Source: an uncultured Candidatus Saccharibacteria bacterium | Lineage (GTDB): Bacteria > Patescibacteriota > Dojkabacteria > J137 | Assembly: GCA_965230975.1 (NCBI GenBank) | Contig: OZ246402.1 | Location: 573,009-637,008, forward strand | DNA length: 64,000 nt | Direction of reading: 5' to 3' | In this document: positions 7,167-58,211 of the stretch, in pieces | Layout: each line of letters opens with the position of its first letter | Numbering within the stretch: position 1 is the first letter of the stretch | Made by a program: the position numbers and the translations under genes | The notes under the pieces: generated by a model | Told to the model about the DNA's origin: nothing | What the model saw: the letters and a program-made list of their open reading frames with translations, nothing else | Databases searched by the model: none

Positions 7167-7260
7167 GTTAAAAATTTATTTATTCTAAACCGTTGTCTAA
7201 ATTTAAAGATGATAAGAAGCATTTTTAAAATTGTGAGCCAAATTGAAATTTTGTCATTAA

Positions 7261-7334
7261 GAAATTTCAATTTGTGGGCTAATTTCAAAATTCTCAAGTA
7301 AAAATTTTGAAATTGTAAGAAGTTTGTAAGATTT
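7261..7334 (+). repeat. 74-nt conserved intergenic element, copy A
   Basis: About 85% identical by hand alignment to 24451-24524. Contains AATTTCAA x2 plus the inverted TTGAAATT, and TTGTAAG x2. Ends 35 nt before the ATG at 7369. Confidence 0.75.
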
Positions 7335-7368
7335 AAATTTTATAATTAAATATTTTAAAAAAAACAAT

Positions 7369-24371: not shown

Positions 24372-24450
24372 TTTTTATTTCCTCTAAAGTGTCTGGAAAA
24401 ATCTTTCAAATCAATTTTATTAAATATGCAGACGGTGTCTGCAGAATTAG

Positions 24451-24524
24451 AAAATTTCAAACTGTGGGATAATTTCAAAATTCTTCAGTACAAATTTCGA
24501 AATTGTAAGGTTTTTGTAAGATTT
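24451..24524 (+). repeat. 74-nt conserved intergenic element, copy B
   Basis: About 85% identical to 7261-7334; ends 21 nt before the ATG at 24545. Confidence 0.75.
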
Positions 24525-24544
24525 GATTGGTAATATTAAGGTAT

Positions 24545-25573
24545 ATGAATACTGTGAATAATTATAACCTTGTTCTGAAAAGTATTAAGGAAAAAATAAT
24601 TGAATCCCAAAGTCGTGCTCTTAGTTCTGTTAATCGTATATTAATAGATCTATACTGGTATATAGGCAAGCTAATCGTCGAAAAACAAAGTAAAGAAGTG
24701 TGGGGTAAGTCCATTGTAGAGCAGTTATCAAAAGACTTGCAATCTGAATTCCCAGGAATAAAAGGGTTCTCGGTTAGAAATCTTTGGAATATGAGAAATT
24801 ATTATTTAAGATATAAAGATAATACAATTCTGCAGACACTGTCTGCAGAAATTTCATGGAGTAGTAATATACTGCTATTGAATAAATGTAGTAACGATAA
24901 GGAGTTGGAATTTTATTTGCAAATGACAAGATCGAATTCTTGGTCTGTAAGGGATTTGGAGTATAGACTTAGGAGTAATGAGTTTGATAATTTTATTCAG
25001 CATCAGAGCAACTTTTCTAGTACGCTTAACTTTAAAGCAAGTAGTTCGATCAAACTTAAGGACGAATATAATTTAGACTTCTTAGGTATAAGGGAAGACT
25101 TTGCAGAAAGAGATTTGGAAAGTCTTATTGTTAAGAAAATTGACGCTTTTATAAAAGAATTTGATTGCAATTTAATGTTTTCTGGTAGGCAAGTCAAACT
25201 AGAGTTTGATGAAGAAGAATTCTTTATAGATCTTCTTTTTTACCATAAACTTTTAAGGTCATATATCGTTATAGAGCTTAAAACAACTCGATTTAAACCT
25301 GAATTTGCCGGAAAGATGTCCTTCTATCTCTCGGCAGTCGAATCAAAATTGAATCAATCCGGTTACGATAACCCTGCAATCGGAATAATTTTATGCAAAG
25401 AAAAGAATAGGAATGTAGTTGATACCACTCTTAAATTTATTACTAGACCTATTGGCGTCGCAACTTTCTCTGTTTATGAAAGAAATACTCCTCTACCATC
25501 AGATATTTCAAAGTATCTACCATTAACCGAAGAGGTAGAAAATAAGCTACTTAAATTGGCAGATATTTATTAA
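24545..25573 (+). CDS. YhcG/DUF1016-type PD-(D/E)xK nuclease
   Basis: ORF is open from the TTG at 24527; the ATG at 24545 is preferred. N-terminal LYWYIGKLIVEKQ...WGKSIVEQLSKDL; nuclease core IDLLFYH...YIVIELK. Confidence 0.75.
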   Translation: MNTVNNYNLVLKSIKEKIIESQSRALSSVNRILIDLYWYIGKLIVEKQSKEVWGKSIVEQLSKDLQSEFPGIKGFSVRNLWNMRNYYLRYKDNTILQTLSAEISWSSNILLLNKCSNDKELEFYLQMTRSNSWSVRDLEYRLRSNEFDNFIQHQSNFSSTLNFKASSSIKLKDEYNLDFLGIREDFAERDLESLIVKKIDAFIKEFDCNLMFSGRQVKLEFDEEEFFIDLLFYHKLLRSYIVIELKTTRFKPEFAGKMSFYLSAVESKLNQSGYDNPAIGIILCKEKNRNVVDTTLKFITRPIGVATFSVYERNTPLPSDISKYLPLTEEVENKLLKLADIY

Positions 25574-45635: not shown

Positions 45636-46190
45636 TTACCAATGCGGAAATTTGTGAGTAATTTTATTGTTTTCTTCTAGCGTTGTTTTTATTTGTTGGC
45701 TATTATTTGAATAGTAGATTACATCCCCGTCTTCTGTATATTCATTTCCATTCTCAGATACATGAATAAAATTTTGGTTCTTACCAGTGAACACTTCCAT
45801 TCCAGATTTTTTGTAGAACTCTGCATTTTTAGGTTCACAAAACCCTACAATCGTTTGTTTTGATTCTTTGGCATATTCCACCATTTTGTTTATTAGTATT
45901 TTCCCGTAACCTTTACCTTGAATAATAGAAATTATTGCTTGCATTCCTAATATTTCTACTTCTCGTTTATCTACCATTACTTTTAAAGAACGTAGAGTCC
46001 CAAATGAAACTAGTTTGTTGTCATCTCTAACTAGGAAAAAAAGTCTGTCCTGGAATTGGTTATTTATTTTGTGATCCCAGATTCGATTTCTACCCAGTCT
46101 GATTACCCTGTATTCATTAACCAAATCAAGATCTTCTTGTTTAAGATTTGTTCCCAGTACTATTTCTGTAGTTATGTTCATGATTAGCAT
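45636..46190 (-). CDS. GNAT-family acetyltransferase
   Basis: 184-aa ORF; QGKGYGKILINKMVEYAK acetyl-CoA-binding motif. Confidence 0.7.
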   Translation of the reverse strand: MLIMNITTEIVLGTNLKQEDLDLVNEYRVIRLGRNRIWDHKINNQFQDRLFFLVRDDNKLVSFGTLRSLKVMVDKREVEILGMQAIISIIQGKGYGKILINKMVEYAKESKQTIVGFCEPKNAEFYKKSGMEVFTGKNQNFIHVSENGNEYTEDGDVIYYSNNSQQIKTTLEENNKITHKFPHW

Positions 46191-46220
46191 ATGTCAAAAA
46201 ATATTTATTCATTTTCAAAA

Positions 46221-46814
46221 TTATTTTTCATAAAGATATCTAGATATAATATTTAGTAATTCTTCGTCACTCATGTTTCTACTATCTAGATTTAGTTCTT
46301 CGTTCCATTTGTCCCAGAATGGTTTGTCTTTTGGTGTGTGATCAGGTTGCAATCCTAATTCTTTACAGATCTCATCTAAGTTTTTAGTGTCGTCAAATAA
46401 TTCTACTTCAAATGGGTATTTTTCGCTTTTGCCTGTTTGGTGAGACAACTTAATTTCTGCATATCCTAGATCAAACAAGTAGTTTGTGTACTGCATTATT
46501 TGTTGGGATGGTATTTGTGCATTTACAGATATTATTATTGCTTTAAAAAAGTTTAGGATTGCTTTAGCATCGTTTACTAGTGGTATTTCTAGTTCTGTTC
46601 TTTCTCTTTTATTCCAGTCTCCTGTTTTTTGTACAAACTCAGCTTGTCCGTTTGTTATTTTTATTCTGCTATCTACTTCTGGCCTTGCCCAGTCGCTTGT
46701 TTCTATTGCTAGTCGAGTCTTTTTAATTGGCTGACCAAATTTGGCTGTAAACTCTTCAAGTTTTTGGTTAAATTGTTGTTGGGTTAATAGTCCCCAGTAT
46801 TCTTTTTCTAACAT
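46221..46814 (-). CDS. possible CYTH-like domain protein
   Basis: The pattern EKEYWG...SRIKITNG...KRERTELEIPL...EIKL...PFEVEL loosely follows the alternating acidic/basic beta-strands of CYTH. Confidence 0.35.
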   Translation of the reverse strand: MLEKEYWGLLTQQQFNQKLEEFTAKFGQPIKKTRLAIETSDWARPEVDSRIKITNGQAEFVQKTGDWNKRERTELEIPLVNDAKAILNFFKAIIISVNAQIPSQQIMQYTNYLFDLGYAEIKLSHQTGKSEKYPFEVELFDDTKNLDEICKELGLQPDHTPKDKPFWDKWNEELNLDSRNMSDEELLNIISRYLYEK

Positions 46815-46829
46815 ATGGTTTTACTAAAT

Positions 46830-47771
46830 TTAGTAAAAGGAAAAGACTTCATCGGAAACTTCTCCAGTATCCCAAAGTATTTTGTTCTCTGGTTTGGATT
46901 TTATTACTACTCTTACAACCACATTCGTTGTGAGGGTAGGTAAAAATTGTACATCCTTTCTTTCATATCTTACATCTCCATATTCATTTGAAATATTGAA
47001 ATCGGTAAGCCAAATTTGGTATGGAACCCAGGAATTTCCACTTGAAATATAATTATTCTTAAATTCACCTTCATCGTTATTCTTAATATAAGCAAGAATT
47101 TCTAAATCATTAACACTGTCTAGTCCTGGACACATAAATGAACCTCGCATCTTTTGAGATGGATTATAAATTCCACCTAAAATCTCGTTTACAGGAGAGA
47201 GTATAGTTAGAGTTTTAAAATAGTAAAATGTGTCAGAAACTTTAATTTCAGATAATAAATCACCCTGAATGACCTGGACATAACATTTGTAATATCCATT
47301 TTGTAAGTTGTAAAGTCTTAGTTCAGTTTGATATCCTGTAAATTCTAATGAGTTTGGTATAGGGTCAGATGCTTTGAGAATTGCAGATTTGAATCCTCCT
47401 AGCATATTTTCTCCTTCCCAGTTGCATTCCAGAACGCCAATATCAGATTTATTTACTAATCTTATTGCAGTAACCCGAGGTAAAGTTGAAGAATTATTAT
47501 TATTTATATTTTCGTTATTATTAGTGTTAGTGATAACTTTTTGCTCATTATTATCAGTTTTTGAGACTTCTTTAGTCTCATTGGATTCGTTAACTGTCAT
47601 ATCCTCATTGTTAATTATGACATAAGATGTAGGGTATTCTTGAATCGAACTACTAAAGACATTTTTATCATGTTCGAATTTCAAAAATATACAAATTAAA
47701 AGTGTGACTATAATCGCTACACCTAGCGCAAAAATAATTAGCGATTTTTTATTAATATTTAAAAGAGACAT
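46830..47771 (-). CDS. membrane-anchored extracytoplasmic protein
   Basis: 313-aa ORF with an N-terminal TM helix, an Asn-rich low-complexity linker and a beta-rich C-terminal region. Confidence 0.55.
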   Translation of the reverse strand: MSLLNINKKSLIIFALGVAIIVTLLICIFLKFEHDKNVFSSSIQEYPTSYVIINNEDMTVNESNETKEVSKTDNNEQKVITNTNNNENINNNNSSTLPRVTAIRLVNKSDIGVLECNWEGENMLGGFKSAILKASDPIPNSLEFTGYQTELRLYNLQNGYYKCYVQVIQGDLLSEIKVSDTFYYFKTLTILSPVNEILGGIYNPSQKMRGSFMCPGLDSVNDLEILAYIKNNDEGEFKNNYISSGNSWVPYQIWLTDFNISNEYGDVRYERKDVQFLPTLTTNVVVRVVIKSKPENKILWDTGEVSDEVFSFY

Positions 47772-47885
47772 AATAGTAACTTAATTTAGTAATCTTAGCA
47801 TTTAATTATTTATATTTCATTGTGTCGCATTACAAATATAGAAATTTTCTCTTATTAAATATTTGCTTAGATTTATAATCATGTT

Positions 47886-48323
47886 ATGAATTACTCACAG
47901 ATTTTATTTGAAAAAGCAACTTCATTTGCAGAAAATTTAAAAGTCAATACCGATATATCGTCTATATTTCTAGGTGGTTCAGGTAGTAGAGGAGTAGAGG
48001 AGTAGAGGATATTAATTCGGATGTCGAAATATATATTGTGCTCAATATTAAACGTAAACTGAATTCATACGTTTACTATTAAAATGCTTGTAGATATGGA
48101 ATATGAAGTGCCTGGAGAGTGGACCATATCTTTATTAATTGAAGGAATTAAATATGACATGTATTTTTGGGAGCTTTCATATATAGATGAGTTAATTACT
48201 AATCATTCTAATTCAATATTGAGTTCTTTAGATGAATGTTCTATTTCTTCGATTTTGGATGCAAAAGTAATTACTGGCAAACTATATATCAAGTCATTGC
48301 AATTAAATTATCAAACTACCTAA
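47886..48323 (+). pseudogene. disrupted nucleotidyltransferase-fold gene
   Basis: The N-terminal fragment MNYSQ...LGGSGSRGVEE stops at the TAG at 48003-48005. Removing one 8-nt repeat unit restores GSGSRGVEDINSDVEIYIV (the GS-x-RG...D-x-D NTase motif). At least one further lesion lies before the 48084..48323 ORF. Confidence 0.6.
47986..48009 (+). repeat. perfect 8-bp tandem repeat (GTAGAGGA x3) inside the NTase pseudogene
   Basis: Read directly from the sequence; this repeat creates the frameshift and premature stop. Confidence 0.9.
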
Positions 48324-48533
48324 AACAACTACAGTCCAAACTTATTCATGAATAAATTTCCATTGAAATTTGAGGAGTTTAAATTGTTTTTGAAGTTTTA
48401 ATTACGTAGTTTTTCTCTTTTTGTGAAATCTTCATTTTAATTCACTAATAATTTCCAATATATTTGTGCCACGGTACATTGTTGAGTTTCTGTTTAGAAG
48501 TTACTATGCGGTATTAAATTTTATAAGAATAGT

Positions 48534-48746
48534 ATGACCTTTGGTGAAAAAATTCAAATTTTGAGATTAAAAAAAGGCATTAGCCAAAAGCAGTTTTCTA
48601 AAGAATCTGGTATTCCCTTTTATACAATTGTCTCTTTAGAATATGATAGAACTAAAATCCCCCTAATAACTACTGTAATAAAACTAGCCCACTATTTTAA
48701 ACTAAGCATTATAGAAATTATTGAGGGTGTAGATTTTAAAAAATAA
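48534..48746 (+). CDS. XRE-family helix-turn-helix transcriptional regulator
   Basis: 70-aa ORF; KIQILRLKKGISQKQFSKESGIPFYTIVSLE is a classic Cro/C1-type HTH. Confidence 0.8.
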   Translation: MTFGEKIQILRLKKGISQKQFSKESGIPFYTIVSLEYDRTKIPLITTVIKLAHYFKLSIIEIIEGVDFKK

Positions 48747-48789
48747 GGTTTTTATAATTGTAAAAAACTAGTACGCCTTTTAAATATCT

Positions 48790-49989
48790 TTATTCTATAG
48801 TGCTTTTATCAAATAAAGATATGGGTATTTCCTCTTCTTCGGCAGTTAGCAAAAACTCTTTAAGCATCTCTTTATGTTCGTCATTTTGCATATAAGACCA
48901 GTCTGTTGCCTCATTATAGTTAGATTTATCTTCACTAAAAAGATTAATCTCTACTCTATATTCATTAAGTTGGTAGTTTTTTATATATTTTGCAACCTCT
49001 ATTATGCCTTCTAATATAGCTTTCCTATCGTTTAATGATATAGTAATACGTTTTTCTTCATCGTTAGTATATTTTTGATAGAAAGAACCGGTGTTAATCC
49101 ACACATCTCTCGTTCGTAGTTCTTGAGCTGCACCTATGGCAATATCAGGTTGAATAAATTCAGATGCTCTAAAAATTTCTTGTGCATTAAACTGGGCATT
49201 TGGAGCCCATGGGAATCCTTGAATACCAAAACTATCTACCAATGTCTTATCTATATTAACTAAGTATGGAGCTAAGCTAATGTAGTCTCCATTGTCCCAT
49301 AACACATCATCAGGTTCATAAGTTGTAGCATTTAATAAAATACTACCTTTTGCGTTTGGAAAATACTTTTTTAAAGATCTTAAATATGTATTTACTACAA
49401 TCCCAAAATCAGAAGGCTCTGTGTCTTTATTATCCCAATTTGGAGTATTCGATTCTGGAAAGGGCACCCATGTCCCCATCATTTCATCTGTAACACCTCT
49501 TTGCTTTAGTTCAAAAAAGAATGTATCTAGTGGCTTATTGTAAACTCCATTTAAAAAATCTCTGTACCTCAATAAGTTGCCACCAGTATATGGCTCTACT
49601 ATTACAATAGGCTGTATATTATTTTGCTTAAATAAATCAAGCTTAGTAGCGATAGTAAAGGCAAGTTCCTGGGCTGAGGTTTGATCAAAAGGAATATGTG
49701 TAAAAAACATTAGTTTATTTGTAACATAGGAGTCACAAATATCTTGATATTCTGCTAATTTTATTAAGTTTTCGTCTTGTTGTGTATTTAAATTTAATGA
49801 GTCTTTTGTTGAGCATTTAGTAAACATTGGCAAATTATCACTTTTATCTTCTTTAACAATATTGGTTAAGGTTTCGTTTAAAATCTCTTTTATGGTTTGG
49901 TTACTAAATATATTGAAAGTGAAAATCACAAAACAAAAAACTGACATAATAATAATCCCGTTTGCAATAAGTAATTCTCTGTTTTTCAT
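48790..49989 (-). CDS. membrane-anchored hypothetical protein, last gene of the GT2 operon (possible polysaccharide-processing enzyme)
   Basis: 399-aa ORF with an N-terminal TM helix, 17 nt downstream of the GT2 gene. Confidence 0.55.
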   Translation of the reverse strand: MKNRELLIANGIIIMSVFCFVIFTFNIFSNQTIKEILNETLTNIVKEDKSDNLPMFTKCSTKDSLNLNTQQDENLIKLAEYQDICDSYVTNKLMFFTHIPFDQTSAQELAFTIATKLDLFKQNNIQPIVIVEPYTGGNLLRYRDFLNGVYNKPLDTFFFELKQRGVTDEMMGTWVPFPESNTPNWDNKDTEPSDFGIVVNTYLRSLKKYFPNAKGSILLNATTYEPDDVLWDNGDYISLAPYLVNIDKTLVDSFGIQGFPWAPNAQFNAQEIFRASEFIQPDIAIGAAQELRTRDVWINTGSFYQKYTNDEEKRITISLNDRKAILEGIIEVAKYIKNYQLNEYRVEINLFSEDKSNYNEATDWSYMQNDEHKEMLKEFLLTAEEEEIPISLFDKSTIE

Positions 49990-50006
49990 ATTTTAATAAT
50001 AAAATC

Positions 50007-51266
50007 TTAAATTCCTTCGCGTTTCCATACTTGCCAAACAACCTCTTCTTTTTTTAAGTACATTCGTAGACTCTTAAATAATGCCATGTATTCAATCCAG
50101 TCAAGAAAGTAAAATAGAGGCCATGTAAATGGAAACATTAATATAATTCCAATCCTAGGCTTTTCGTTGCTAAACAAGGCTGTAATTACGTAAGATAAAA
50201 ATATAAATAGAATACCAATGCTTATAGATACAAATTCAAGTGTAATTAAGCTGTAAATTAACAATACAGCTATAGCTATTGGCTCAAAAATAAGTTGTAT
50301 TTCTGTAAATAATGAAAATGGTAGTACAAAATAAGATAAAAAGAAATTGTGTGAATCTTCTGTAGAAAAAAACATTGATTTATACTTTTTAAATGTATCT
50401 AATCTTCCTTTTTTCCATCTAATTCTTTGAGAAATTAATCCTTTTACAGTAGAAGCACCTTCTGTATAGCAAACTACATTTTCTGCATAAGTACATTTGT
50501 ATCCAAAGTATCTAAGTCTCATAGACATTTCTATATCTTCGGTTTTGTTTACAGTATCAAAAAGCCCAATTTTATCAAAAACTTCTCTTCTAAAAGATGC
50601 GCAAGCACCTCCAAAAATATATTCAGCACCAAGTACTGCGTGTGTTCTCTTGTTGTAAAATCCAAAGTAGTATTCTAAGTATTGTGCTAGCCCCAACAAG
50701 GTTTTTGTATTGGTTACTTGTACATTCCCAACAACTCCAAATATTGTTTCATCTCTGTAATATTTCACTAAATTACTTATAGAACCATTTTTAAGTTTTG
50801 AATCCGCATCTATAGTTAAAACTATCTCTCCTTTAGCAAGTTGAATTCCAGTATTTAAAGCAACTCCCTTTCCACCATTTGTCTGATATTTGTAGGTGAT
50901 TTTTTCACCTAGCTCTTTATCTTTATTTTTTAAATCAGAGATGTATTTTTTCATTATTTTATCTGAGTTGTCTGTAGATCCATCGTTAACAACTATTATT
51001 TGTACATTCGAATATCCGTTATATAAGGCTGATTCAACTGTTTTTAAAATTCCAACTTCTTCATTCCAAGCAGGTATTACTACTGACACTAAATAAGGTT
51101 CTGGGTTTTCTAATGAACCATTTTTTTTATATTGCTTTATTAATCTTAATTTTTCTTTAATTGTGTACCACGGAGCTATTACTAAAAAGAGATAATTTTT
51201 AAGTAATACTAGGCTTACAAATAATGCTATTAATGATGTGAATATTATATAGATTGTATTTTCCAT
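50007..51266 (-). CDS. processive family-2 glycosyltransferase (PgaC/IcaA/cellulose-synthase-like)
   Basis: VVIPAWNEE, VVNDGSTD, TIDADS, and QRIRWKKG (the QxxRW processivity motif); flanking TM helices. Confidence 0.85.
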   Translation of the reverse strand: MENTIYIIFTSLIALFVSLVLLKNYLFLVIAPWYTIKEKLRLIKQYKKNGSLENPEPYLVSVVIPAWNEEVGILKTVESALYNGYSNVQIIVVNDGSTDNSDKIMKKYISDLKNKDKELGEKITYKYQTNGGKGVALNTGIQLAKGEIVLTIDADSKLKNGSISNLVKYYRDETIFGVVGNVQVTNTKTLLGLAQYLEYYFGFYNKRTHAVLGAEYIFGGACASFRREVFDKIGLFDTVNKTEDIEMSMRLRYFGYKCTYAENVVCYTEGASTVKGLISQRIRWKKGRLDTFKKYKSMFFSTEDSHNFFLSYFVLPFSLFTEIQLIFEPIAIAVLLIYSLITLEFVSISIGILFIFLSYVITALFSNEKPRIGIILMFPFTWPLFYFLDWIEYMALFKSLRMYLKKEEVVWQVWKREGI

Positions 51267-51270
51267 TTAT

Positions 51271-51879
51271 TTATCTGTAACTGACTAAAGAGTAACCGTA
51301 ATATATTGAATTATTAGTGTCTTCTATTAATAAAATAATTTGTCTTTTATCTGATTTACTTGCTACAAAGATATCGTTGTAGTTCAGAATTTTGATTGAT
51401 TCAACTGAGTAACTAATAGATTGCCCTTTCTTTGTAGATATATTTACAGTGTTTCCGATTTCAATGTTGCTGGTGTAGGGGATTGTTCTCCAAGATTTTT
51501 TTAAGTAAATTAAGTAGTCGACTGGATTGTTAAATTTATCGTAATTTAATTCAATGTATTGAGCCATACTAGGTCTTTGGTACCAAATATCATTTATATT
51601 TCTTGCTTCTTCAACAATCGATTTAATACCAAGTTCTTCTATTTCTATTAAATCTATTATTCCAATGTCTAAATTAATATCAATATCTTTATTACCTTGT
51701 TTAATTTTATATTCTGATACTATTTTATTTATTGGTTCTTGTATCTCCATTTGGTTCAAGGACATTCCAAGTGGTATGTCTTGGTTTGCTAGTACTTCAA
51801 ATGCATTTGCAAATATGAAAAGTGTAAATGTAAAAGATGCCAGGCCGAATATGAGCTTTTGAGGCTGTAAAAATTTCAT
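51271..51879 (-). CDS. secreted hypothetical protein
   Basis: 202-aa ORF with a signal-like N-terminus; 4 nt upstream of the GT2 gene. Confidence 0.55.
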   Translation of the reverse strand: MKFLQPQKLIFGLASFTFTLFIFANAFEVLANQDIPLGMSLNQMEIQEPINKIVSEYKIKQGNKDIDINLDIGIIDLIEIEELGIKSIVEEARNINDIWYQRPSMAQYIELNYDKFNNPVDYLIYLKKSWRTIPYTSNIEIGNTVNISTKKGQSISYSVESIKILNYNDIFVASKSDKRQIILLIEDTNNSIYYGYSLVSYR

Positions 51880-52016
51880 GATATTTTTTTGAATCTTATG
51901 TATAGACTTAAAATTATGTTTAGTATTAGTGTTATTAAGTTTATTAGTACTACTGTTGAGGCAATAAAAATTAACCCAAAAATAATAAAGTTTTCAAACA
52001 ATATGTATTGAATCAT
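51876..52016 (-). CDS. small hydrophobic protein (46 aa), absent from the ORF track
   Basis: Hand translation gives MIQYILFENFIIFGLIFIASTVVLINLITLILNIILSLYIRFKKIS. Its TGA overlaps the ATG of the next gene (ATGA). Confidence 0.35.
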   Translation of the reverse strand: MIQYILFENFIIFGLIFIASTVVLINLITLILNIILSLYIRFKKIS

Positions 52017-52158
52017 ATATGTTAGTATGATTTTTAACTTTGATAATTAAAAAAGGCTTGGTTAATTAGTTAGTTTTATTAACTAATTAGGTTTCGGTGT
52101 ATGATAATCTTATTACTTACTAAAGTCGGCAATTTTTAGTAAATAAAGTGTAAAGAAA

Positions 52159-52575
52159 TTATTTCTTTTTGTAGTTTAAATATACCTGTACCATTAGTGC
52201 TACAAGTATAAAGTTTTTTAGAATATATTGTGCTTCTAGTGTTGGCAGTAAGAATCCTGTCCACGCAATATTTGGTAAGAATATTAACGGCAGGAATGTT
52301 GTTGCCATGTGGGCTATTGATAAGACAAATGTGATTTTTGTGATTGGTTTGTATAGGTAAAGTAAACCAATTATTACTTCAGTTAATCCTAAAAATATTA
52401 CAAAGGAGTTTGAGTCTAGAAAGGGTAGGGTTGCCTTTTGAAGATCAATAACTAAGGGTGAGGCTGGGCTTTGTCCGGTTACTTTTATTATTCCAAACCA
52501 AAAGTATGCTAAGAATATTGATAGTCTAGAAAATGTATCTATGTATTTACTAAATATTGGGTCTAGCTTTTGCAT
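52159..52575 (-). CDS. integral membrane protein (about 4 TM helices)
   Basis: 138-aa hydrophobic ORF. Confidence 0.55.
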   Translation of the reverse strand: MQKLDPIFSKYIDTFSRLSIFLAYFWFGIIKVTGQSPASPLVIDLQKATLPFLDSNSFVIFLGLTEVIIGLLYLYKPITKITFVLSIAHMATTFLPLIFLPNIAWTGFLLPTLEAQYILKNFILVALMVQVYLNYKKK

Positions 52576-52700
52576 TAAATGTAACTTTTAATAAGTATTG
52601 TATTATTTAACAATTTCTTGGGTTAAAGATCAATAGTTTGTATTTTAGTAAGTTTGAAAGTTTGTGGGATACTGGTATAAGTTATTAGTTATCAAATTTT

Positions 52701-52889
52701 ATGGAAGGTTTTAATTGGGGAGTTTTTGACTTTATTATTGGGTTTTCTTTGATTTTTGTTACAGCTTTAGTTTTTTATTTTGTTTCTAAAAAACTAAAAA
52801 TACTAAAACATAAGGTTGTTTTAGGTATAGGTTTATTAGCCATATTATTAGTGGTTTGGGTGGAATTAGCTGTAGGGATTTTTAACTGA
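52701..52889 (+). CDS. small membrane protein (2 TM helices)
   Basis: 62-aa hydrophobic ORF. Confidence 0.4.
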   Translation: MEGFNWGVFDFIIGFSLIFVTALVFYFVSKKLKILKHKVVLGIGLLAILLVVWVELAVGIFN

Positions 52890-52980
52890 TTAAATATTTG
52901 CGGGATTGGATATATATCCTATTGCACATGTCAGTGCATCTATAAATTCATCAATTTGGGTTAGCGTATTTTTAGATTAT

Positions 52981-53727
52981 TTATGCAAGTTTTAAGACCT
53001 TTTTAAGAACCTTGTTATCTGTATTATATTCAACTATTTCAAAACGCCTAAAGTTTAATAGTTTTTCTCTAGAGAATTTAAGTTCAATTTTATAACCATA
53101 TATATTTAATGCTACTTGCCTAAAGTTTTGATCGTATACATTAAAACTTTGTTTTTGGGTTGTTATTTTGTCCCAAAGCTTACTTGTAATTGAGTTTGAT
53201 TTTATTTTAATTATTGAGTCTTGATAAATCTGATCATCTTCTTGGTAGCCCATTTCTGCGTAGAAGAGTTTTAGTTGATTCGCAACAATTTCTTGTAATC
53301 TGAAGATTTTAAATATTGGATTGCTAGCCTGATCTACAATTAAGTTAATTACTGATTGATCAATATATTTATCCCAATCTACTGGAATTAGTTTTTTGAA
53401 ACCATTAGATACAGCAATTAGTCTTTTTCTATCATCAAGTAAGTAGAGTAATCTATTATTAGAGTTTAATAGATCTTGTATTGAATTTTTTGCTAGATTT
53501 ATTTCTTCTTTAGAAGCTGGGTTTTGAGTTTTGCCAATTAGGTAATCGATTTCTTCTTCGTTAAGTTTAAAAACCTCTGCAATTTTTAATACACTTTCTT
53601 TAGTAGGATTTATAATATTATTTTCTATTCTGCTTATAACACCTGCTGATAATCCTGTGAGTACCTCGGCTTCAAGTTGGCTTAAGCCACATCTGTTTCT
53701 AAAGTATTTTAGTCTGGTTCCTAGCAT
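52981..53727 (-). CDS. XRE-family HTH regulator with a ~180-aa C-terminal domain of unknown function
   Basis: N-terminal LKYFRNRCGLSQLEAEVLTGLSAGVISRIENN. Confidence 0.7.
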   Translation of the reverse strand: MLGTRLKYFRNRCGLSQLEAEVLTGLSAGVISRIENNIINPTKESVLKIAEVFKLNEEEIDYLIGKTQNPASKEEINLAKNSIQDLLNSNNRLLYLLDDRKRLIAVSNGFKKLIPVDWDKYIDQSVINLIVDQASNPIFKIFRLQEIVANQLKLFYAEMGYQEDDQIYQDSIIKIKSNSITSKLWDKITTQKQSFNVYDQNFRQVALNIYGYKIELKFSREKLLNFRRFEIVEYNTDNKVLKKVLKLA

Positions 53728-53871
53728 AATGTTTTAGTTTTGAAGTAGGATTTAATTACAATATGAATTTTAGCATGAGTTACAATAAGATCTTTACAAT
53801 GTAGCCATATCAAATCAAATCACACTAGTGTGATATAATGCGTATATACTATTTTATGTAGTTAATTCACA

Positions 53872-54972
53872 ATGTCAATTAATACTGATTTAGAACAAAG
53901 TAATTCGGTTAGACTAATAAGTAGCCAAATTAAAGAGCGTTCTTCAAATGTGGTTTTATACTCTGATTCAGATTTTAAATCTGCCCACAGTATTTATTGC
54001 CCTATAGGATTTGAGTCTGTTGCTGACTATTATGTTGCTCCTTACATGCGTAAGTTTGCAGACATTATCTTTGGTGTCGCACAAAATCCTTCTTATGGAT
54101 ATTCCCCTGAAAAGAATGAAATACATATTTACTTTTCAGAAATGGATTTATATAAAGGAATTTTAGCTTTGTTAGCTAATAATACTCGAGCATTAGAGGG
54201 TATTCTTAAAGCTCTAGAAATAGATCATACTCAAATTGAAGATACTATTTTAAGATACGTAAGGCTTCTCAATAGAATTACCTTTGATAATAAATATAAT
54301 TTGGATAATCAAGATAAACTTTTACTTGAAAGGATGGGTGCTTTTTTTAGTGGCCATCCGGATTTTATAGAATTGATTTTTGGTAATTCTGTAAATTACT
54401 CTGTTTATCATGAGGTAAATCACGCCAGGTTAGATGATTTGTATTTAAATGTAGCATATATTCCAAGATATAATTCTAGTTCTGCAAGAAATGCGATGCA
54501 AGTCAGTTATATAGGGTTTATGGATAAGTTTAATGAAATTGAGACTTATTTAATTGAAAATAATAACTTAACAGATTCCTATATTACTATTCTTCAACTA
54601 ACTAATCATGGTATGTTTAAGATTTTGTTAAGGGATATCTATTCTTATCCAGATAAGATAGATGCATTGTATACAAGTTATCTGGGTTCTTTACAGGAGC
54701 TGTTTAATTTTATGCAATTCGCAATTCTAAAAAAAGATTTAGCTAAAGATGAATTACAAAAGCAATTGATTAGATATTTTTGTGCATATATTGCAGATGT
54801 AATGTTTTTATTCCCTGATAATGCTATTGTTAGAAGATACTTGGATTTGGCAAATTCTTTAGATGCAAATCAAATAAATTTGTTTTTGAAAGAGTTAGTC
54901 GCCCTAATGAATAAGGAGTCGTTTGATAAGTTTGTAGATACTCATTTTAGATGGCTACAAAAAGAGGATTAA
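53872..54972 (+). CDS. hypothetical protein with an HExxH motif
   Basis: 366-aa ORF containing YHEVNHA; divergent from the XRE gene. Confidence 0.5.
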   Translation: MSINTDLEQSNSVRLISSQIKERSSNVVLYSDSDFKSAHSIYCPIGFESVADYYVAPYMRKFADIIFGVAQNPSYGYSPEKNEIHIYFSEMDLYKGILALLANNTRALEGILKALEIDHTQIEDTILRYVRLLNRITFDNKYNLDNQDKLLLERMGAFFSGHPDFIELIFGNSVNYSVYHEVNHARLDDLYLNVAYIPRYNSSSARNAMQVSYIGFMDKFNEIETYLIENNNLTDSYITILQLTNHGMFKILLRDIYSYPDKIDALYTSYLGSLQELFNFMQFAILKKDLAKDELQKQLIRYFCAYIADVMFLFPDNAIVRRYLDLANSLDANQINLFLKELVALMNKESFDKFVDTHFRWLQKED

Positions 54973-55457
54973 TTTTCGCTATACTGATCAAGTTCCTCCT
55001 GTGTTATAGAAAACATTTGTCTTATCATATCTAGTTGAGATCTTAATACCATAAAATTTATACTGTTAGATTCCATTTCTTCAGCACTTAATATTAAAGG
55101 CATTTCTGGGTTATGTTCTTCGTAATCTGTTCTAATTTCTCCGATATGTGGTATCTTACCTATTTGTTCTATGGTTTTTAAAATTCCACCTGCTAGCCAT
55201 TGTGAGCAGTTTAACGGGCTATTTACATATTCTTCGAGGCTTAAACCTGACCTGATATTTGGATATATTCCAAGTTCTTTAAGATGGTTTAAGACTAGGT
55301 ATATTTTGTTTAGAAGTATTTCTTTATCCATTGGTCTTAAAGGTAGTGTTGGGTCCTCACTATAACTAGTAATGTATGCCATTACTTCTACACATAAATC
55401 TCTTAGCTCTTTACTTTTGTGGTCGCTATTAAAGAAATATTTATCAGGTTTGAACAT
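54969..55457 (-). CDS. hypothetical protein
   Basis: 162-aa ORF. Confidence 0.55.
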   Translation of the reverse strand: MFKPDKYFFNSDHKSKELRDLCVEVMAYITSYSEDPTLPLRPMDKEILLNKIYLVLNHLKELGIYPNIRSGLSLEEYVNSPLNCSQWLAGGILKTIEQIGKIPHIGEIRTDYEEHNPEMPLILSAEEMESNSINFMVLRSQLDMIRQMFSITQEELDQYSEN

Positions 55458-55537
55458 GAATTTATTCTCAAAAAATATTGTGTGGATTATATACTATTTT
55501 TCTGAAGTTTAAAGAATTGTACATTTAATTGGCAGAT

Positions 55538-55582
55538 CTCGTAACATTCGACTACATTTCATTTGTCTCATTAACTACGGAG
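55538..55582 (+). repeat. 45-nt direct repeat, copy 1
   Basis: CTCGTAACATTCGACTACATTTCATTTGTCTCATTAACTACGGAG; 44/45 identical to 57210-57254. Confidence 0.9.
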
Positions 55583-55709
55583 AGCTTCGGATGTTTTTCC
55601 AATTTGACCCGTGGCAAGAAATATTATTGATTGACCAATAGATATTAATTCTACACTCTATAGATTTATTAATAGTGTGTTATGATCTATCATATTTCAT
55701 TCTCAAAGT

Positions 55710-56783
55710 ATGAAACAAATGGTTCATTTAAATGAAAACATGCGTTCTAGTAGAGGCATTGTTAGAATGTTTAATCAAATACCCACACAGGAATTATTAG
55801 AAGCTCTCTCGAAATATCCTGATTTAATACCACCTGGTGCAGAGATTGTAGCAACCAATTTTGGACAGATAAATTTGGTCTACATTGTTAGAGTTCCAGG
55901 TATAAAGATCCCTAAACGAGTAATTATTATACCCAGGCCAGATAAAGAGACAAATCAGGTTGAGCAAGACACAATGGAAGATTTTTACGGTTTAAAAGAA
56001 GTGTATGAATCTTTTGTGGCATTTAAATCTGAAGGTAAGATTCAAGCTACAGCTACCATACCTATACCTAGACCTTTAGGACTTATTTGCTCTCAATTTT
56101 TAACTGTAATGGTTAATGAATTCGCGGGCAGTCAAGAAGGTTATTTTGGTTCTGAAGAAACCTTTCCTGCTTTTGTTTCGGGAGGAACAGGTGGTAATAC
56201 ATATTTAGGTTTATCCTGGATAGTGAACCCAAGTTTCACTAATGAGACAGACTTATTAAGACGTCAGACTACAAGTATTGCTAATAGGTTGACTCATCAT
56301 CTGGGTAACAATGGAATTGATAGTGAATATAGTAGTATCTCTCATGCGATAGCTATCTCTCATATTGAAGCTCTAGTCAAAGTTTGGTTACTTACAGGAA
56401 AATATCCTCTAAAATACTGTCCTTCTGCTGGAGATGGTGTTATGTTAAATAAAGATTATGATTCAAAAAGTCATCCTGACATAGCTAATGTGGATATTAA
56501 TTTAATTACATTAAGAGGCGGACTATCTCGGGTAGTAGATTCGCAAGCTTTTATTCAATTCTTAAGAGGACTAAAGGATAAGCCAATCGTTTATTGCGAT
56601 TTTAAAGGTTCGGATTTAGTCATAGTTCAACCTAATAATGCTAAATTATATGAATACTGGGGAGGAGAGGAAGTTAGTGTTTTTAGTGATAAACAAATTA
56701 GAGAAGGTATTGAAAGGGCATTTATGAATTACTTTGGAAACGATTCTTTGCATTATCTGCAAAGAATTTTGGCTGAAGTATAA
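55710..56783 (+). CDS. hypothetical protein (possibly a divergent kinase-like fold)
   Basis: 357-aa ORF. NFGQINLVYIV loosely resembles the glycine-loop strand of APH/ChoK-type kinases, but no clear catalytic motif is present. Confidence 0.55.
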   Translation: MKQMVHLNENMRSSRGIVRMFNQIPTQELLEALSKYPDLIPPGAEIVATNFGQINLVYIVRVPGIKIPKRVIIIPRPDKETNQVEQDTMEDFYGLKEVYESFVAFKSEGKIQATATIPIPRPLGLICSQFLTVMVNEFAGSQEGYFGSEETFPAFVSGGTGGNTYLGLSWIVNPSFTNETDLLRRQTTSIANRLTHHLGNNGIDSEYSSISHAIAISHIEALVKVWLLTGKYPLKYCPSAGDGVMLNKDYDSKSHPDIANVDINLITLRGGLSRVVDSQAFIQFLRGLKDKPIVYCDFKGSDLVIVQPNNAKLYEYWGGEEVSVFSDKQIREGIERAFMNYFGNDSLHYLQRILAEV

Positions 56784-56808
56784 AAAGCTCTATCAGTTTT
56801 TAATTTTA

Positions 56809-57108
56809 TTAAGCTTCTCTGTCGATTTCTTTATTTCCTAGTTCAGATTCTTGAATGTTTTTAATATCAACAGTTCTTCTAGCTAAGTACAGAGAACCAA
56901 CGCTATGTTGAAGCATTTTAATTAAACCATCAGGAGTATGGCTGCTATCGATTTCACCCTGCCCGTTAATTCCTACATAAATATTCCCATCAGTTTGAAC
57001 AAAATATACTGTATTCTTCTCTATAGCTAGTTTTTTAGCATTCGCAAGTCTTTCTTCATATGTTTCAGGAACAGTTTGATCTATTAAATCCTCAATGTGG
57101 TAGTTCAT
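56809..57108 (-). CDS. hypothetical protein
   Basis: 99-aa ORF with a good upstream promoter. Confidence 0.55.
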   Translation of the reverse strand: MNYHIEDLIDQTVPETYEERLANAKKLAIEKNTVYFVQTDGNIYVGINGQGEIDSSHTPDGLIKMLQHSVGSLYLARRTVDIKNIQESELGNKEIDREA

Positions 57109-57135
57109 TTATATAGGTTTAAAATTTAATAACTG

Positions 57136-57164
57136 ATTATAACGTTGACAAATTATGTGGTCAA
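57136..57164 (-). promoter_or_regulatory. sigma70-like promoter for the 56809..57108 gene
   Basis: On the minus strand: TTGACC (57164-57159), 17-nt spacer, TATAAT (57141-57136), 28 nt before the ATG. Confidence 0.5.
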
Positions 57165-57209
57165 TATTAGTTTCGAATTTAAGAACGGAGGAGACCAAGT
57201 AGGTCGCTC

Positions 57210-57254
57210 CTCGTAACATTCGACTACATATCATTTGTCTCATTAACTACGGAG
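57210..57254 (+). repeat. 45-nt direct repeat, copy 2
   Basis: Same 45-mer as 55538-55582 with a single T/A difference at position 21. Confidence 0.9.
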
Positions 57255-57500
57255 GAGACAGGATTCACCCATCCGGGCATCTCAATTTTCTAGAATTCGC
57301 CAAATAGTTTTAAGTAGCTCATTAAGAAAATTAGAGACGAACCTTGTTCTCATCCTGGTTTTCTTTCTTTGCTCAAATTTGCCACAATATACAATTGTGT
57401 CAAACCTGAGAACGGGACACACGGGTCTGGAACCGTAGTCACCACTAAGATTATATCCAAAAATGAGACATTTGAGACATATAAAAAAGGAGTATCAAAT

Positions 57501-58211
57501 TTATGATTCTGGAGTATCGCCAACCAGTAATCTTAATTGGGAGATAATTTGGTCCAATTCCCCATCTTTATTAGAAATATAATTAGAAAATAAATGTCTT
57601 TTTGCAAGAATAGCTCGTGCATTTCTAATTCGACCCTGAAATTCAACCTCACTTTCTCCTCGATCTCTTAGTGAAAGTCTACTTGAAATTACCTCTAAAG
57701 CTTTTTCTACTCCATTCTCACCTTCAATTTCTTCAGTAGTAATAGGACTTATAAAGCAATCATAAATTGGAATATTAAGTCTCTTGAAGATATCTTTCAA
57801 AAGTAGAGCTCCATCAACGTCAATATCTAAGATTAAACGGTTTCCATTGTTCAAAGCCACTAGTATATCATCTAAGCTTGTTCCATAGTATCCTTGCCCA
57901 TATTTACTCCATTCTAATAGCTTATTTTTATTTACTTGGTCTAGGAAGTCACTTTCATCTAAGGAATGATAATTAGATTCATTAGGATTCATACTTTTAG
58001 TCGTCGTTCTATTAACTTTAGTATATCCTCGATTGCTTGCCATAAGTTTTTCAATTATAGAACTTTTACCAACTCCATTAGGGCCAGTAATCAAAATAAC
58101 TTGAAAGTTATGTTCACCTAGGCGTTCAGATAAAGTTAGAAAATTAATCTTATCTACAGTTTGGTTCTGTCCCCATTTATAATTTCTATCTAAGTCCATA
58201 ATTATCATCAA
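57501..58211 (-). CDS. guanylate-kinase-like P-loop NMP kinase
   Basis: P-loop GPNGVGKSS, TTK...ESNYHSLDESDF, and LEWSKYGQGYYGT parallel Gmk motifs; carries a ~35-aa N-terminal extension. Confidence 0.6.
   Translation of the reverse strand: MMIIMDLDRNYKWGQNQTVDKINFLTLSERLGEHNFQVILITGPNGVGKSSIIEKLMASNRGYTKVNRTTTKSMNPNESNYHSLDESDFLDQVNKNKLLEWSKYGQGYYGTSLDDILVALNNGNRLILDIDVDGALLLKDIFKRLNIPIYDCFISPITTEEIEGENGVEKALEVISSRLSLRDRGESEVEFQGRIRNARAILAKRHLFSNYISNKDGELDQIISQLRLLVGDTPES

Follow-up and report, generated by a model that had tools for sequence, protein, structure and literature searches.

Why does a 45-nucleotide (nt) sequence occur twice, in the same orientation, on either side of a pair of convergent genes in the genome of an uncultured Candidatus Saccharibacteria bacterium? 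The locus lies in a stretch of 64,000 nucleotides of contig OZ246402.1, which we call the window. By exact pattern search, we found the two copies of this 45-mer, CTCGTAACATTCGACTACAT(T/A)TCATTTGTCTCATTAACTACGGAG, on the plus strand, 1672 nt apart in direct orientation and identical at 44/45 positions, with T/A at position 21 as the sole mismatch (Table 1). An independent assembly, Logan contig L001, covers both copies and is 100% identical to the window over 45710–57308. Thus, the duplication is not an assembly artefact, and both the repeat pair and the two open reading frames (ORFs) between its copies are confirmed as an earlier note, made from the sequence alone, had described them. No third copy was found in the window at three or fewer mismatches, 100 dinucleotide shuffles of the window yielded no match to the 45-mer, and an ungapped scan at identities of at least 60% revealed no additional copy in the window and about 28 kb of related loci. 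We tentatively read the repeat as part of an element, E, that serves, actively or passively, as a junction or anchor for recombination in a hypervariable island.

Comparison with a second strain of the same species (strain B) indicated that the 45-mer is not the whole repeat. The 24 nt immediately before copy 1 of strain B (contig L003, 9797–9820) match their counterparts before window copy 2 (57186–57209) at 19/24 positions and in register, and a match of this quality has a probability of about 1e-6 by chance (binomial estimate). Therefore, the copies share ancestry over 69 nt and are not a convergent motif. The earlier note had called the flanks of the two copies unrelated; they are dissimilar within the window genome, but for E as a whole the statement fails. 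As read from these alignments, the true repeat unit is an element of about 64–69 nt, in which a GC-rich, imperfect putative hairpin (about 24 nt) precedes the AT-rich 45-mer, with (A/G)CGGAG at the edges of the whole. Copy 1 of the window is a truncated form of E. The hairpin of the extension is predicted in both available versions, with one pair altered on both sides, which is suggestive given two sequences. At the edges of E, the sequence TTAANNACGGAG has three exact occurrences in the window, every one at an element edge; from base composition, about 0.1 exact occurrences of the motif ACGGAG/TTAAnnACGGAG would be expected per window, as against the three seen, all at the edges of E. An ACGGAG-type motif also brackets a 158-nt indel to the right of copy 2 and adjoins the border of the island.

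E appears to be confined to this lineage. Strain B carries the 45-mer as well. Searches of public collections for its parts gave no matches: none for its left 20-mer in viral contigs, none for its central 22-mer in GTDB representative genomes and metagenome contigs, and none in metagenome and viral contigs for a pattern of the positions conserved in all three versions of E. Plasmid and phage collections likewise held no match to the 2-kb region. As observations on the wider setting, the window has a G+C content of about 31%, the GTDB representative genomes include hardly any close relatives, and many proteins of the window have few homologues, or none, among 5.8 billion proteins.

To locate what is shared and what is replaced around E, we compared the three strain types of this species present in databases: type A (the window, L001, L002, L006, L007 and L022), type B (L003 and L015) and type C (L008–L014); one sample originates from South African wastewater and river metagenomes. 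From 57413 onwards, all three types are 98–100% identical as far as the window extends. Types A and B are also 95–99% identical over the left flank (48353–53728), and they share the block 55538–57210 at 98.4% identity (26/1673 differences, 1.55%), a divergence equal to that of the core flanks. Therefore, the module between the copies was vertically inherited and its neighbours were swapped. On the left, A/B homology stops at the start codon of the XRE-type helix-turn-helix (HTH) gene. The following segment, 53729–55537, which holds the genes w366 and w162, is replaced in strain B by five other genes (L003 5703–9820), the last of which is l349, and homology restarts exactly at 55538, the first base of copy 1. 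The 45-mer of copy 1 in strain B (L003 9821–9865) shows 0/45 differences from that of the window. It follows the stop codon of the plus-strand gene l349 by 14 nt, with no minus-strand gene or promoter beside it. Thus, the earlier observation that each copy lies upstream of a minus-strand promoter describes the window, but not strain B.

On the right, the second replaced segment starts inside copy 2, between 57211 and 57229. The strain B contig L015 crosses the 57412/57413 border directly into a diverged E (minus strand CCCG/TAGTTAAAGAGACAAACGAAGTGTAGT, with the slash at the border), which matches window copy 2 at 23/27 visible positions and window copy 1 at 24/27. On the plus strand, this junction joins the diverged copy 2 to the conserved flank as ...CTACGGG/ACACACGGG. 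The two 45-mers of strain B are only about 85–89% alike. The 158-nt segment between copy 2 and the border in the window is missing from strain B, and it has no similarity to the rest of the window or to the related sequences compared. Both inner breakpoints are compatible with a single position in the predicted anatomy of E, the junction of extension and 45-mer. The A/B exchange points fall at or inside E. By contrast, type C, from 57412 leftwards, carries a 227-amino-acid protein, OmdA, a hydrolase and glycosyltransferases, all unrelated to the window, over more than 10 kb; it lacks E and the whole region, and its island has no junction repeats. The region is a recombination hot spot, as type C and two related species carry wholly different DNA leftwards of 57412.

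Several short-read contigs end near the element. L003 ends at the first base of copy 2 and L015 inside copy 2; L001 and L007, from the same sample, leave 57309–57326 uncovered between them, and contig ends were noted at 57308–57327, in L006 as well. The exact stretches shared at these contig ends are shorter than the assembler's k, and population heterogeneity at these places is possible.

The fixed right border of the island is a conserved element in its own right (57413–57500; Table 1). It is near-invariant across the three strain types and two other species (L016/L019 and L020; equivalents at L008 9081–9167, L016 10691–10788 and L020 6691–6788), and it is far better conserved than the adjacent guanylate-kinase-like protein, which is only 48–51% identical in those two species. 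All genomes compared, five genomes from three species, diverge directly after ...TGTCCCG (57412/57413), and the island gene nearest the border is always co-oriented with the promoter-like element. The cargo beyond the border in L016 comprises EcoR124_C fragments, a tetratricopeptide repeat (TPR) protein and a methyltransferase. The pairing of the hairpin in the border element is 92.9%, with a single compensatory pair, and does not reach significance over four sequences; the wobble and compensatory changes favour, as far as the comparison goes, a minus-strand RNA. The border element has no match in Rfam. Local alignments were no better than those of shuffles when region R1 or the 158-nt segment was tried as a diverged copy of this leader, or when E-like sequence was sought past the border in the other species. 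A search of the guanylate-kinase-like protein against GTDB representative genomes returned only an unrelated Myxococcales match. The border element is the more unusual object at this locus: better conserved than the gene beside it, it lies precisely where the variable region begins.

How might E have come to stand at these breakpoints? Most likely, E works as a recombination junction or is what such a junction left behind. In this scheme, the module between the copies would be passed on intact while strains exchange the outside DNA through crossovers at or inside E. The anatomy of E, the positions of the breakpoints and the lack of a nearby recombinase are observed; that recombination takes place at E, and by which enzyme, is inferred. 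One possible route is a site-specific enzyme encoded elsewhere in the genome. A second would be homology-driven or illegitimate recombination, in which E is the only sequence common to otherwise unrelated neighbours. A site-specific and not merely homology-assisted exchange would fit with inner breakpoints that are compatible with one position and with the ACGGAG core at each junction, including those of the indel and the border; the missing recombinase, the lack of likeness to attC or dif, the breakpoint in a hairpin arm and the small number of informative strains, two, speak against it. The 44/45 identity of the window copies may reflect a recent exchange or gene conversion between them, because the copies in strain B are so much less alike. 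A direct repeat of 45 nt would also be long enough for looping-out of the module. The resulting circle, or a tandem array, would have the junction ...GTAGGTCGCTC/CTCGTAACATTCGACTACATTTCATTTG...ACGGAG/AGCTTCGG (ext2, the copy-1 version and R1), and the deletion would leave ...TTGGCAGAT/CTCGTAAC...ACATATCATTTG...ACGGAG/GAGACAGG (the left flank of copy 1 and the copy-2 version).

Of the three explanations offered by the earlier note, an att-like junction is the best fit, with breakpoints at or inside E. However, in the three strain types available, we found neither a single E without the 55583–57209 segment nor a circular junction. Other points weigh against a recombination junction as well. Two strains carry E, which amounts to two breakpoints and gives no statistical power. 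The 12 nt on which the exact second breakpoint depends fall in a gap between contigs L003 and L015; L003 comes from sample SRR32414321, and we infer that the two contigs belong to one genome. The left breakpoint lies within the 3′ arm of the hairpin and not in a spacer, unlike the core site of a classical tyrosine recombinase. The genes called between about 45.7 kb and a point some 4 kb past the window's end include no recombinase or transposase domain, and none lies within about −10 to +17 kb. E also resembles neither attC nor dif/pdif sites, as set out below. Finally, generic illegitimate recombination with gene conversion explains all of the events too, with E as a passive scar. The third explanation, a recent duplication of a promoter region, is not borne out, as nothing beyond the element is duplicated.

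Among known systems, E is most like cassette-boundary sites or the attL/attR borders of integrated elements, the latter a class that we compared together with integrase-less islands mobilised in trans. As at attL/attR borders, direct repeats of tens of bases surround a small module beside a conserved fixed border (44/45 over 45 nt in the window, and a 69-nt homology in strain B). Tandem accretion has a counterpart as well, in that the strain B copy abuts the border and short stacked segments are separated by an ACGGAG/ACGGG core. The differences are that neither the module nor its vicinity contains an integrase or excisionase, that the border is a promoter-like non-coding element and not a tRNA or transfer-messenger RNA (tmRNA) gene, and that the divergence of the module equals that of the core genome, so that it did not arrive recently. 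Short direct repeats at module borders are a known type of feature, of which E provides a lineage-specific case.

Integron cassettes and their attC sites, including clusters of attC sites lacking integron integrases (CALIN), share with E a hairpin-containing repeat at cassette boundaries, a precise site of neighbour exchange close to the 3′ base of the hairpin, a fixed border whose conserved promoter reads into variable DNA, and the absence of a recombinase within the array. The sites themselves differ. No R″ (RYYYAAC) and R′ (GTTRRRY) pair spaced by 40–140 nt was found on either strand of 55400–55700 and 57100–57450, and the best single-box matches were no better than those in random regions of the window. 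Nor does a whole-site hairpin form: only the 24–28-nt extension folds, and the regions of the 45-mer fold no better than shuffles. In addition, there are only two sites, the genes between them are convergent with strong promoter-like sites of their own, and no intI was found. It is very unlikely, in our estimate, that the locus is an integrase-distant, integron-like expression platform, with a conserved border promoter pointing into variable DNA and with E, unrelated to attC and dif, as a recombination site of a new type at which an enzyme encoded elsewhere would exchange the modules. The dif/pdif modules (XerC/XerD) of Acinetobacter plasmids resemble the locus as small recombinase-less modules with short sites, mobile between contexts. 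However, a module with pdif sites has them as inverted copies on its two sides, whereas the copies of E are direct, and the best match of E to an 11-6-11 site (13–17 of 27–28 positions) was equalled or exceeded by 59–100% of random regions of the window.

Should E prove to be a recombination site, it would illustrate the swapping of ORFan modules by a small genome of a poorly sampled lineage that has no recombinase at the locus, and would connect this swapping with the conserved promoter of the fixed border. At present, the value of the result lies in annotation and in the design of read-level tests, and it would not surprise specialists.

It is also possible, although we consider it unlikely, that E is a minus-strand terminator or insulator, or another RNA element. 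Its GC-rich hairpin followed by UUCUUAAAUU would end transcripts that come from the conserved promoter or kinase operon before they reach the w99 promoter; in strain B a small RNA of about 105 nt would result from the leader and E, with copy 1 as a duplicate of this unit. Consistent with this, the strain B border element is followed directly by the reverse complement of E and its hairpin, and the predicted 106-nt RNA has z = −2.07, with 5/200 shuffles as stable. The placement of the hairpins is also terminator-like: 14 nt after the l349 stop codon for copy 1 of strain B and, for ext2, ending 20 nt upstream of the −35 box of w99 at copy 2. The hairpin is kept in both versions despite changes at 5/24 nt, and a U-rich stretch follows it on the minus strand. 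However, this tail (TTCTTAAATT after the ext2 hairpin, with 4 T in 8) falls just under the T-run criterion, and a terminator scan of 53600–57700 found none. Copy 1 of the window has no hairpin and yet retains the 45-mer perfectly; the conserved part is the AT-rich 45-mer, and the hairpin part, at 79% between copies, is conserved less well. The terminal pairing of the 45-mer pointed out earlier is present in minimum-free-energy folds, but the stability of the region does not exceed that of shuffles (z −1.0 to +0.8). Searches with Rfam found nothing relevant to E in 55300–57700 even at E-values up to 10, and with the covariance models of Rfam 15 only a tRNA-Gly in the window reached the gathering threshold. 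Leader and E lie 158 nt apart in the window.

A more passive origin, which we judge improbable, is that E is a neutral relic, a decayed gene end or an old local duplication maintained by gene conversion, and that the breakpoints fall there by coincidence or as an effect of ascertainment. The left edge of the 45-mer is where the replaced DNA begins, hence it is not independent evidence. Nor is the conservation of E1 between A and B (0/45 differences, against about 0.7–2.5 expected and 7/127 in R1) significantly above that of its surroundings, and the 158-nt indel could be explained as a deletion at microhomology (ACGG). One plus-strand frame is open through E, with 3/4 substitutions synonymous (p about 0.1–0.3, own calculation). 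As a coding relic, E was nevertheless rejected: the frame has no start codon, an indel of 1 nt between strains A and B shifts it just downstream, all five changes in the extension are non-synonymous in it, and its statistics are insignificant. Coincidence is made less attractive by the two replaced segments, which, along about 1.9 kb of shared DNA, both end in the two 69-nt copies, and by the recurrence of ACGGAG/TTAAnnACGGAG at each junction, which is unlikely by chance.

A regulator-binding site co-controlling the adjacent genes, with the nearby XRE-type HTH protein or a TGTCTCA-box factor as the candidate regulator, is quite unlikely. In both strains, the copies lie outside the promoter-like sites of the module, about 95 nt upstream of the w357 TGn-TATGAT and 45 nt upstream of the −35 box of w99. 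The 45-mer holds a perfect TGTCTCA with a degenerate box 9 nt before it, spaced as in the 57464–57479 pair of the border element, and ACAT-N6-ACAT and TCATT-N4-TCATT can be read from the 45-mer as short direct repeats whose spacing is roughly helical. By contrast, matches to the box pair at three mismatches are at chance level (10 against 4.75 expected), and TGTCTCA is not enriched (8 against 5.6 expected). The copies differ in orientation and distance to the two promoters of the module, the link to the w162 promoter is strain-specific with copy 1 of strain B facing the 3′ end of a gene, and no palindrome of the XRE-type regulator kind is present. The 69-nt homology, which includes the GC-rich hairpin, points to common descent and not to a shared motif. 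An UP element would be an A/T-rich block directly upstream of the −35 box (about −40 to −60) in a fixed orientation, and the copies do not occupy such positions: upstream of −35, the distance to the start of the 45-mer is 24 nt for copy 1 and, with the GC-rich hairpin in between, 45 nt for copy 2. The earlier suggestion of a shared regulator-binding or UP module is weakened by the context in strain B, these distances, the opposite orientations and the chance-level box. The promoters named there exist as sequence matches (11/12 and 10/12 consensus positions), but the region contains fewer such matches than its shuffles (13 versus 21.5); therefore, they are no evidence of function.

Two further candidates were rejected: a miniature inverted-repeat transposable element (MITE), insertion-sequence-derived or repetitive extragenic palindromic (REP) repeat, given that 64 kb plus about 28 kb hold two copies, that terminal inverted repeats are absent and, for a MITE with target duplication, that the flanking repeats are inconsistent in length (6 and 11–17 nt); and a remnant of clustered regularly interspaced short palindromic repeats (CRISPR), in which the 64-nt period is present but the repeated part is merely 17 nt and imperfect.

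Table 1 Features of the repeat pair, the module and the island border (window coordinates)
Feature	Position	Strand	Remarks
XRE-type HTH gene	52981..53727	-	Left anchor of the A/B swapped segment; Pfam HTH_3; 94% identical in strain B
Segment left of copy 1	53729..55537	.	Strain-specific; holds w366, w162 and the promoter-like site 55513-55486
w366	53872-54972	+	366 amino acids; HEVNH motif
w162	54969-55457	-	
w162 promoter-like site	55513-55486	-	TTTAAA-16-TATAAT; 10/12 consensus positions
E1, copy 1 of the 45-mer	55538..55582	+	Exact match; identical in strain B (L003 9821-9865); no hairpin extension here
Module between copies	55583..57185	.	1.6 kb; two convergent ORFan genes; R1, w357, w99 and promoter-like site
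R1, upstream region of w357	55583-55709		Conserved TGn-TATGAT at 55678-55686; invariant in window, L003 and L004
w357	55710-56783	+	ORFan, 357 amino acids
w99	56809-57108	-	ORFan, 99 amino acids
w99 promoter-like site	57164-57136	-	TTGACC-17-TATAAT; 11/12 consensus positions
Full E2 unit	57179..57259	+	Terminal 17-nt direct repeats TTAAnnACGGAGGAGAC at 57179-57195 and 57243-57259; 15/17, spacing 64 nt
ext2, part of copy 2	57186..57209	+	24-nt GC-rich imperfect inverted repeat, predicted hairpin; with A57185 begins ACGGAG
E2, copy 2 of the 45-mer	57210..57254	+	Exact match; strain B counterpart diverged
Segment right of copy 2	57255..57412	.	Strain-specific, non-coding, 158 nt; ACGGAG (57249-57254) and ACGGG (57412-57416) at ends
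Border element	57413..57500	-	Promoter-like/leader element, 88 nt, non-coding; fixed right border of the island; downstream of guanylate-kinase-like gene
Border: TGTCTCA boxes	57479-57473, 57470-57464	-	9 nt apart
Border: TATAAT	57455-57450	-	8 nt past the boxes
Border: short hairpin	57436-57421	-	Invariant loop UUCCAGAC

Each gene of the module has a promoter-like site of its own facing inward from the module edge. The products of w357 and w99 had no match in Pfam, PHROGs, PADLOC, NCBIfam or a PDB profile search, and the genes of both the module and the swapped segments are ORFans in the first four of these collections. Relatives of the w357 protein number three among the 5.8 billion proteins, one of them on the strain B contig L003. 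An AlphaFold model of the module cargo had a predicted local distance difference test (pLDDT) score of 37.6, too poor for use, and a kinase-like impression of the cargo gained from conserved motifs was unsupported and was dropped. We also considered whether the two units, each with a gene of about 360 residues, a small convergent gene and a 45-mer, are diverged tandem duplicates, and rejected this, as their proteins show no similarity. In strain B, w99 (L003 11091–11391) has a 1-nt insertion near window position 56993 that splits it into ORFs of 39 and 64 amino acids, and it is possibly a pseudogene there.

Among the replaced genes, only w366 has a distant counterpart in the corresponding segment of strain B, namely l349 (L003 8733–9782), at 35% identity amid genomes that are 98–99% identical. 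Both carry an HExxH motif (HEVNH in w366 and HEFNH in l349), which hints at a fast-evolving, putatively metalloprotease-like protein. Further to the left, a 146-nt segment (52666–52811) that overlaps the start of a 62-amino-acid ORF (52701–52889) is present in the window and missing from strain B.

Other repeats of the window lie far from E. The tRNA-Gly(UCC) gene at 314–385 is preceded by two partial copies of its first 25 nt or so and the sequence upstream of it (111–135 and 209–233). Together, they form a family at 82–135, 181–234 and 285–338 with a spacing of about 100 nt; a small hairpin and AATAACCG (complementary to CGGTTATT) come after each unit. A 94-nt intergenic repeat occurs at 7256–7349 and 24446–24539, 17 kb apart and 81% identical, with the palindrome AATTTCAAAATT...AATTTTGAAATT in each copy, and a 22-nt inverted repeat at 24427–24448 and 24826–24847 is 95% complementary.

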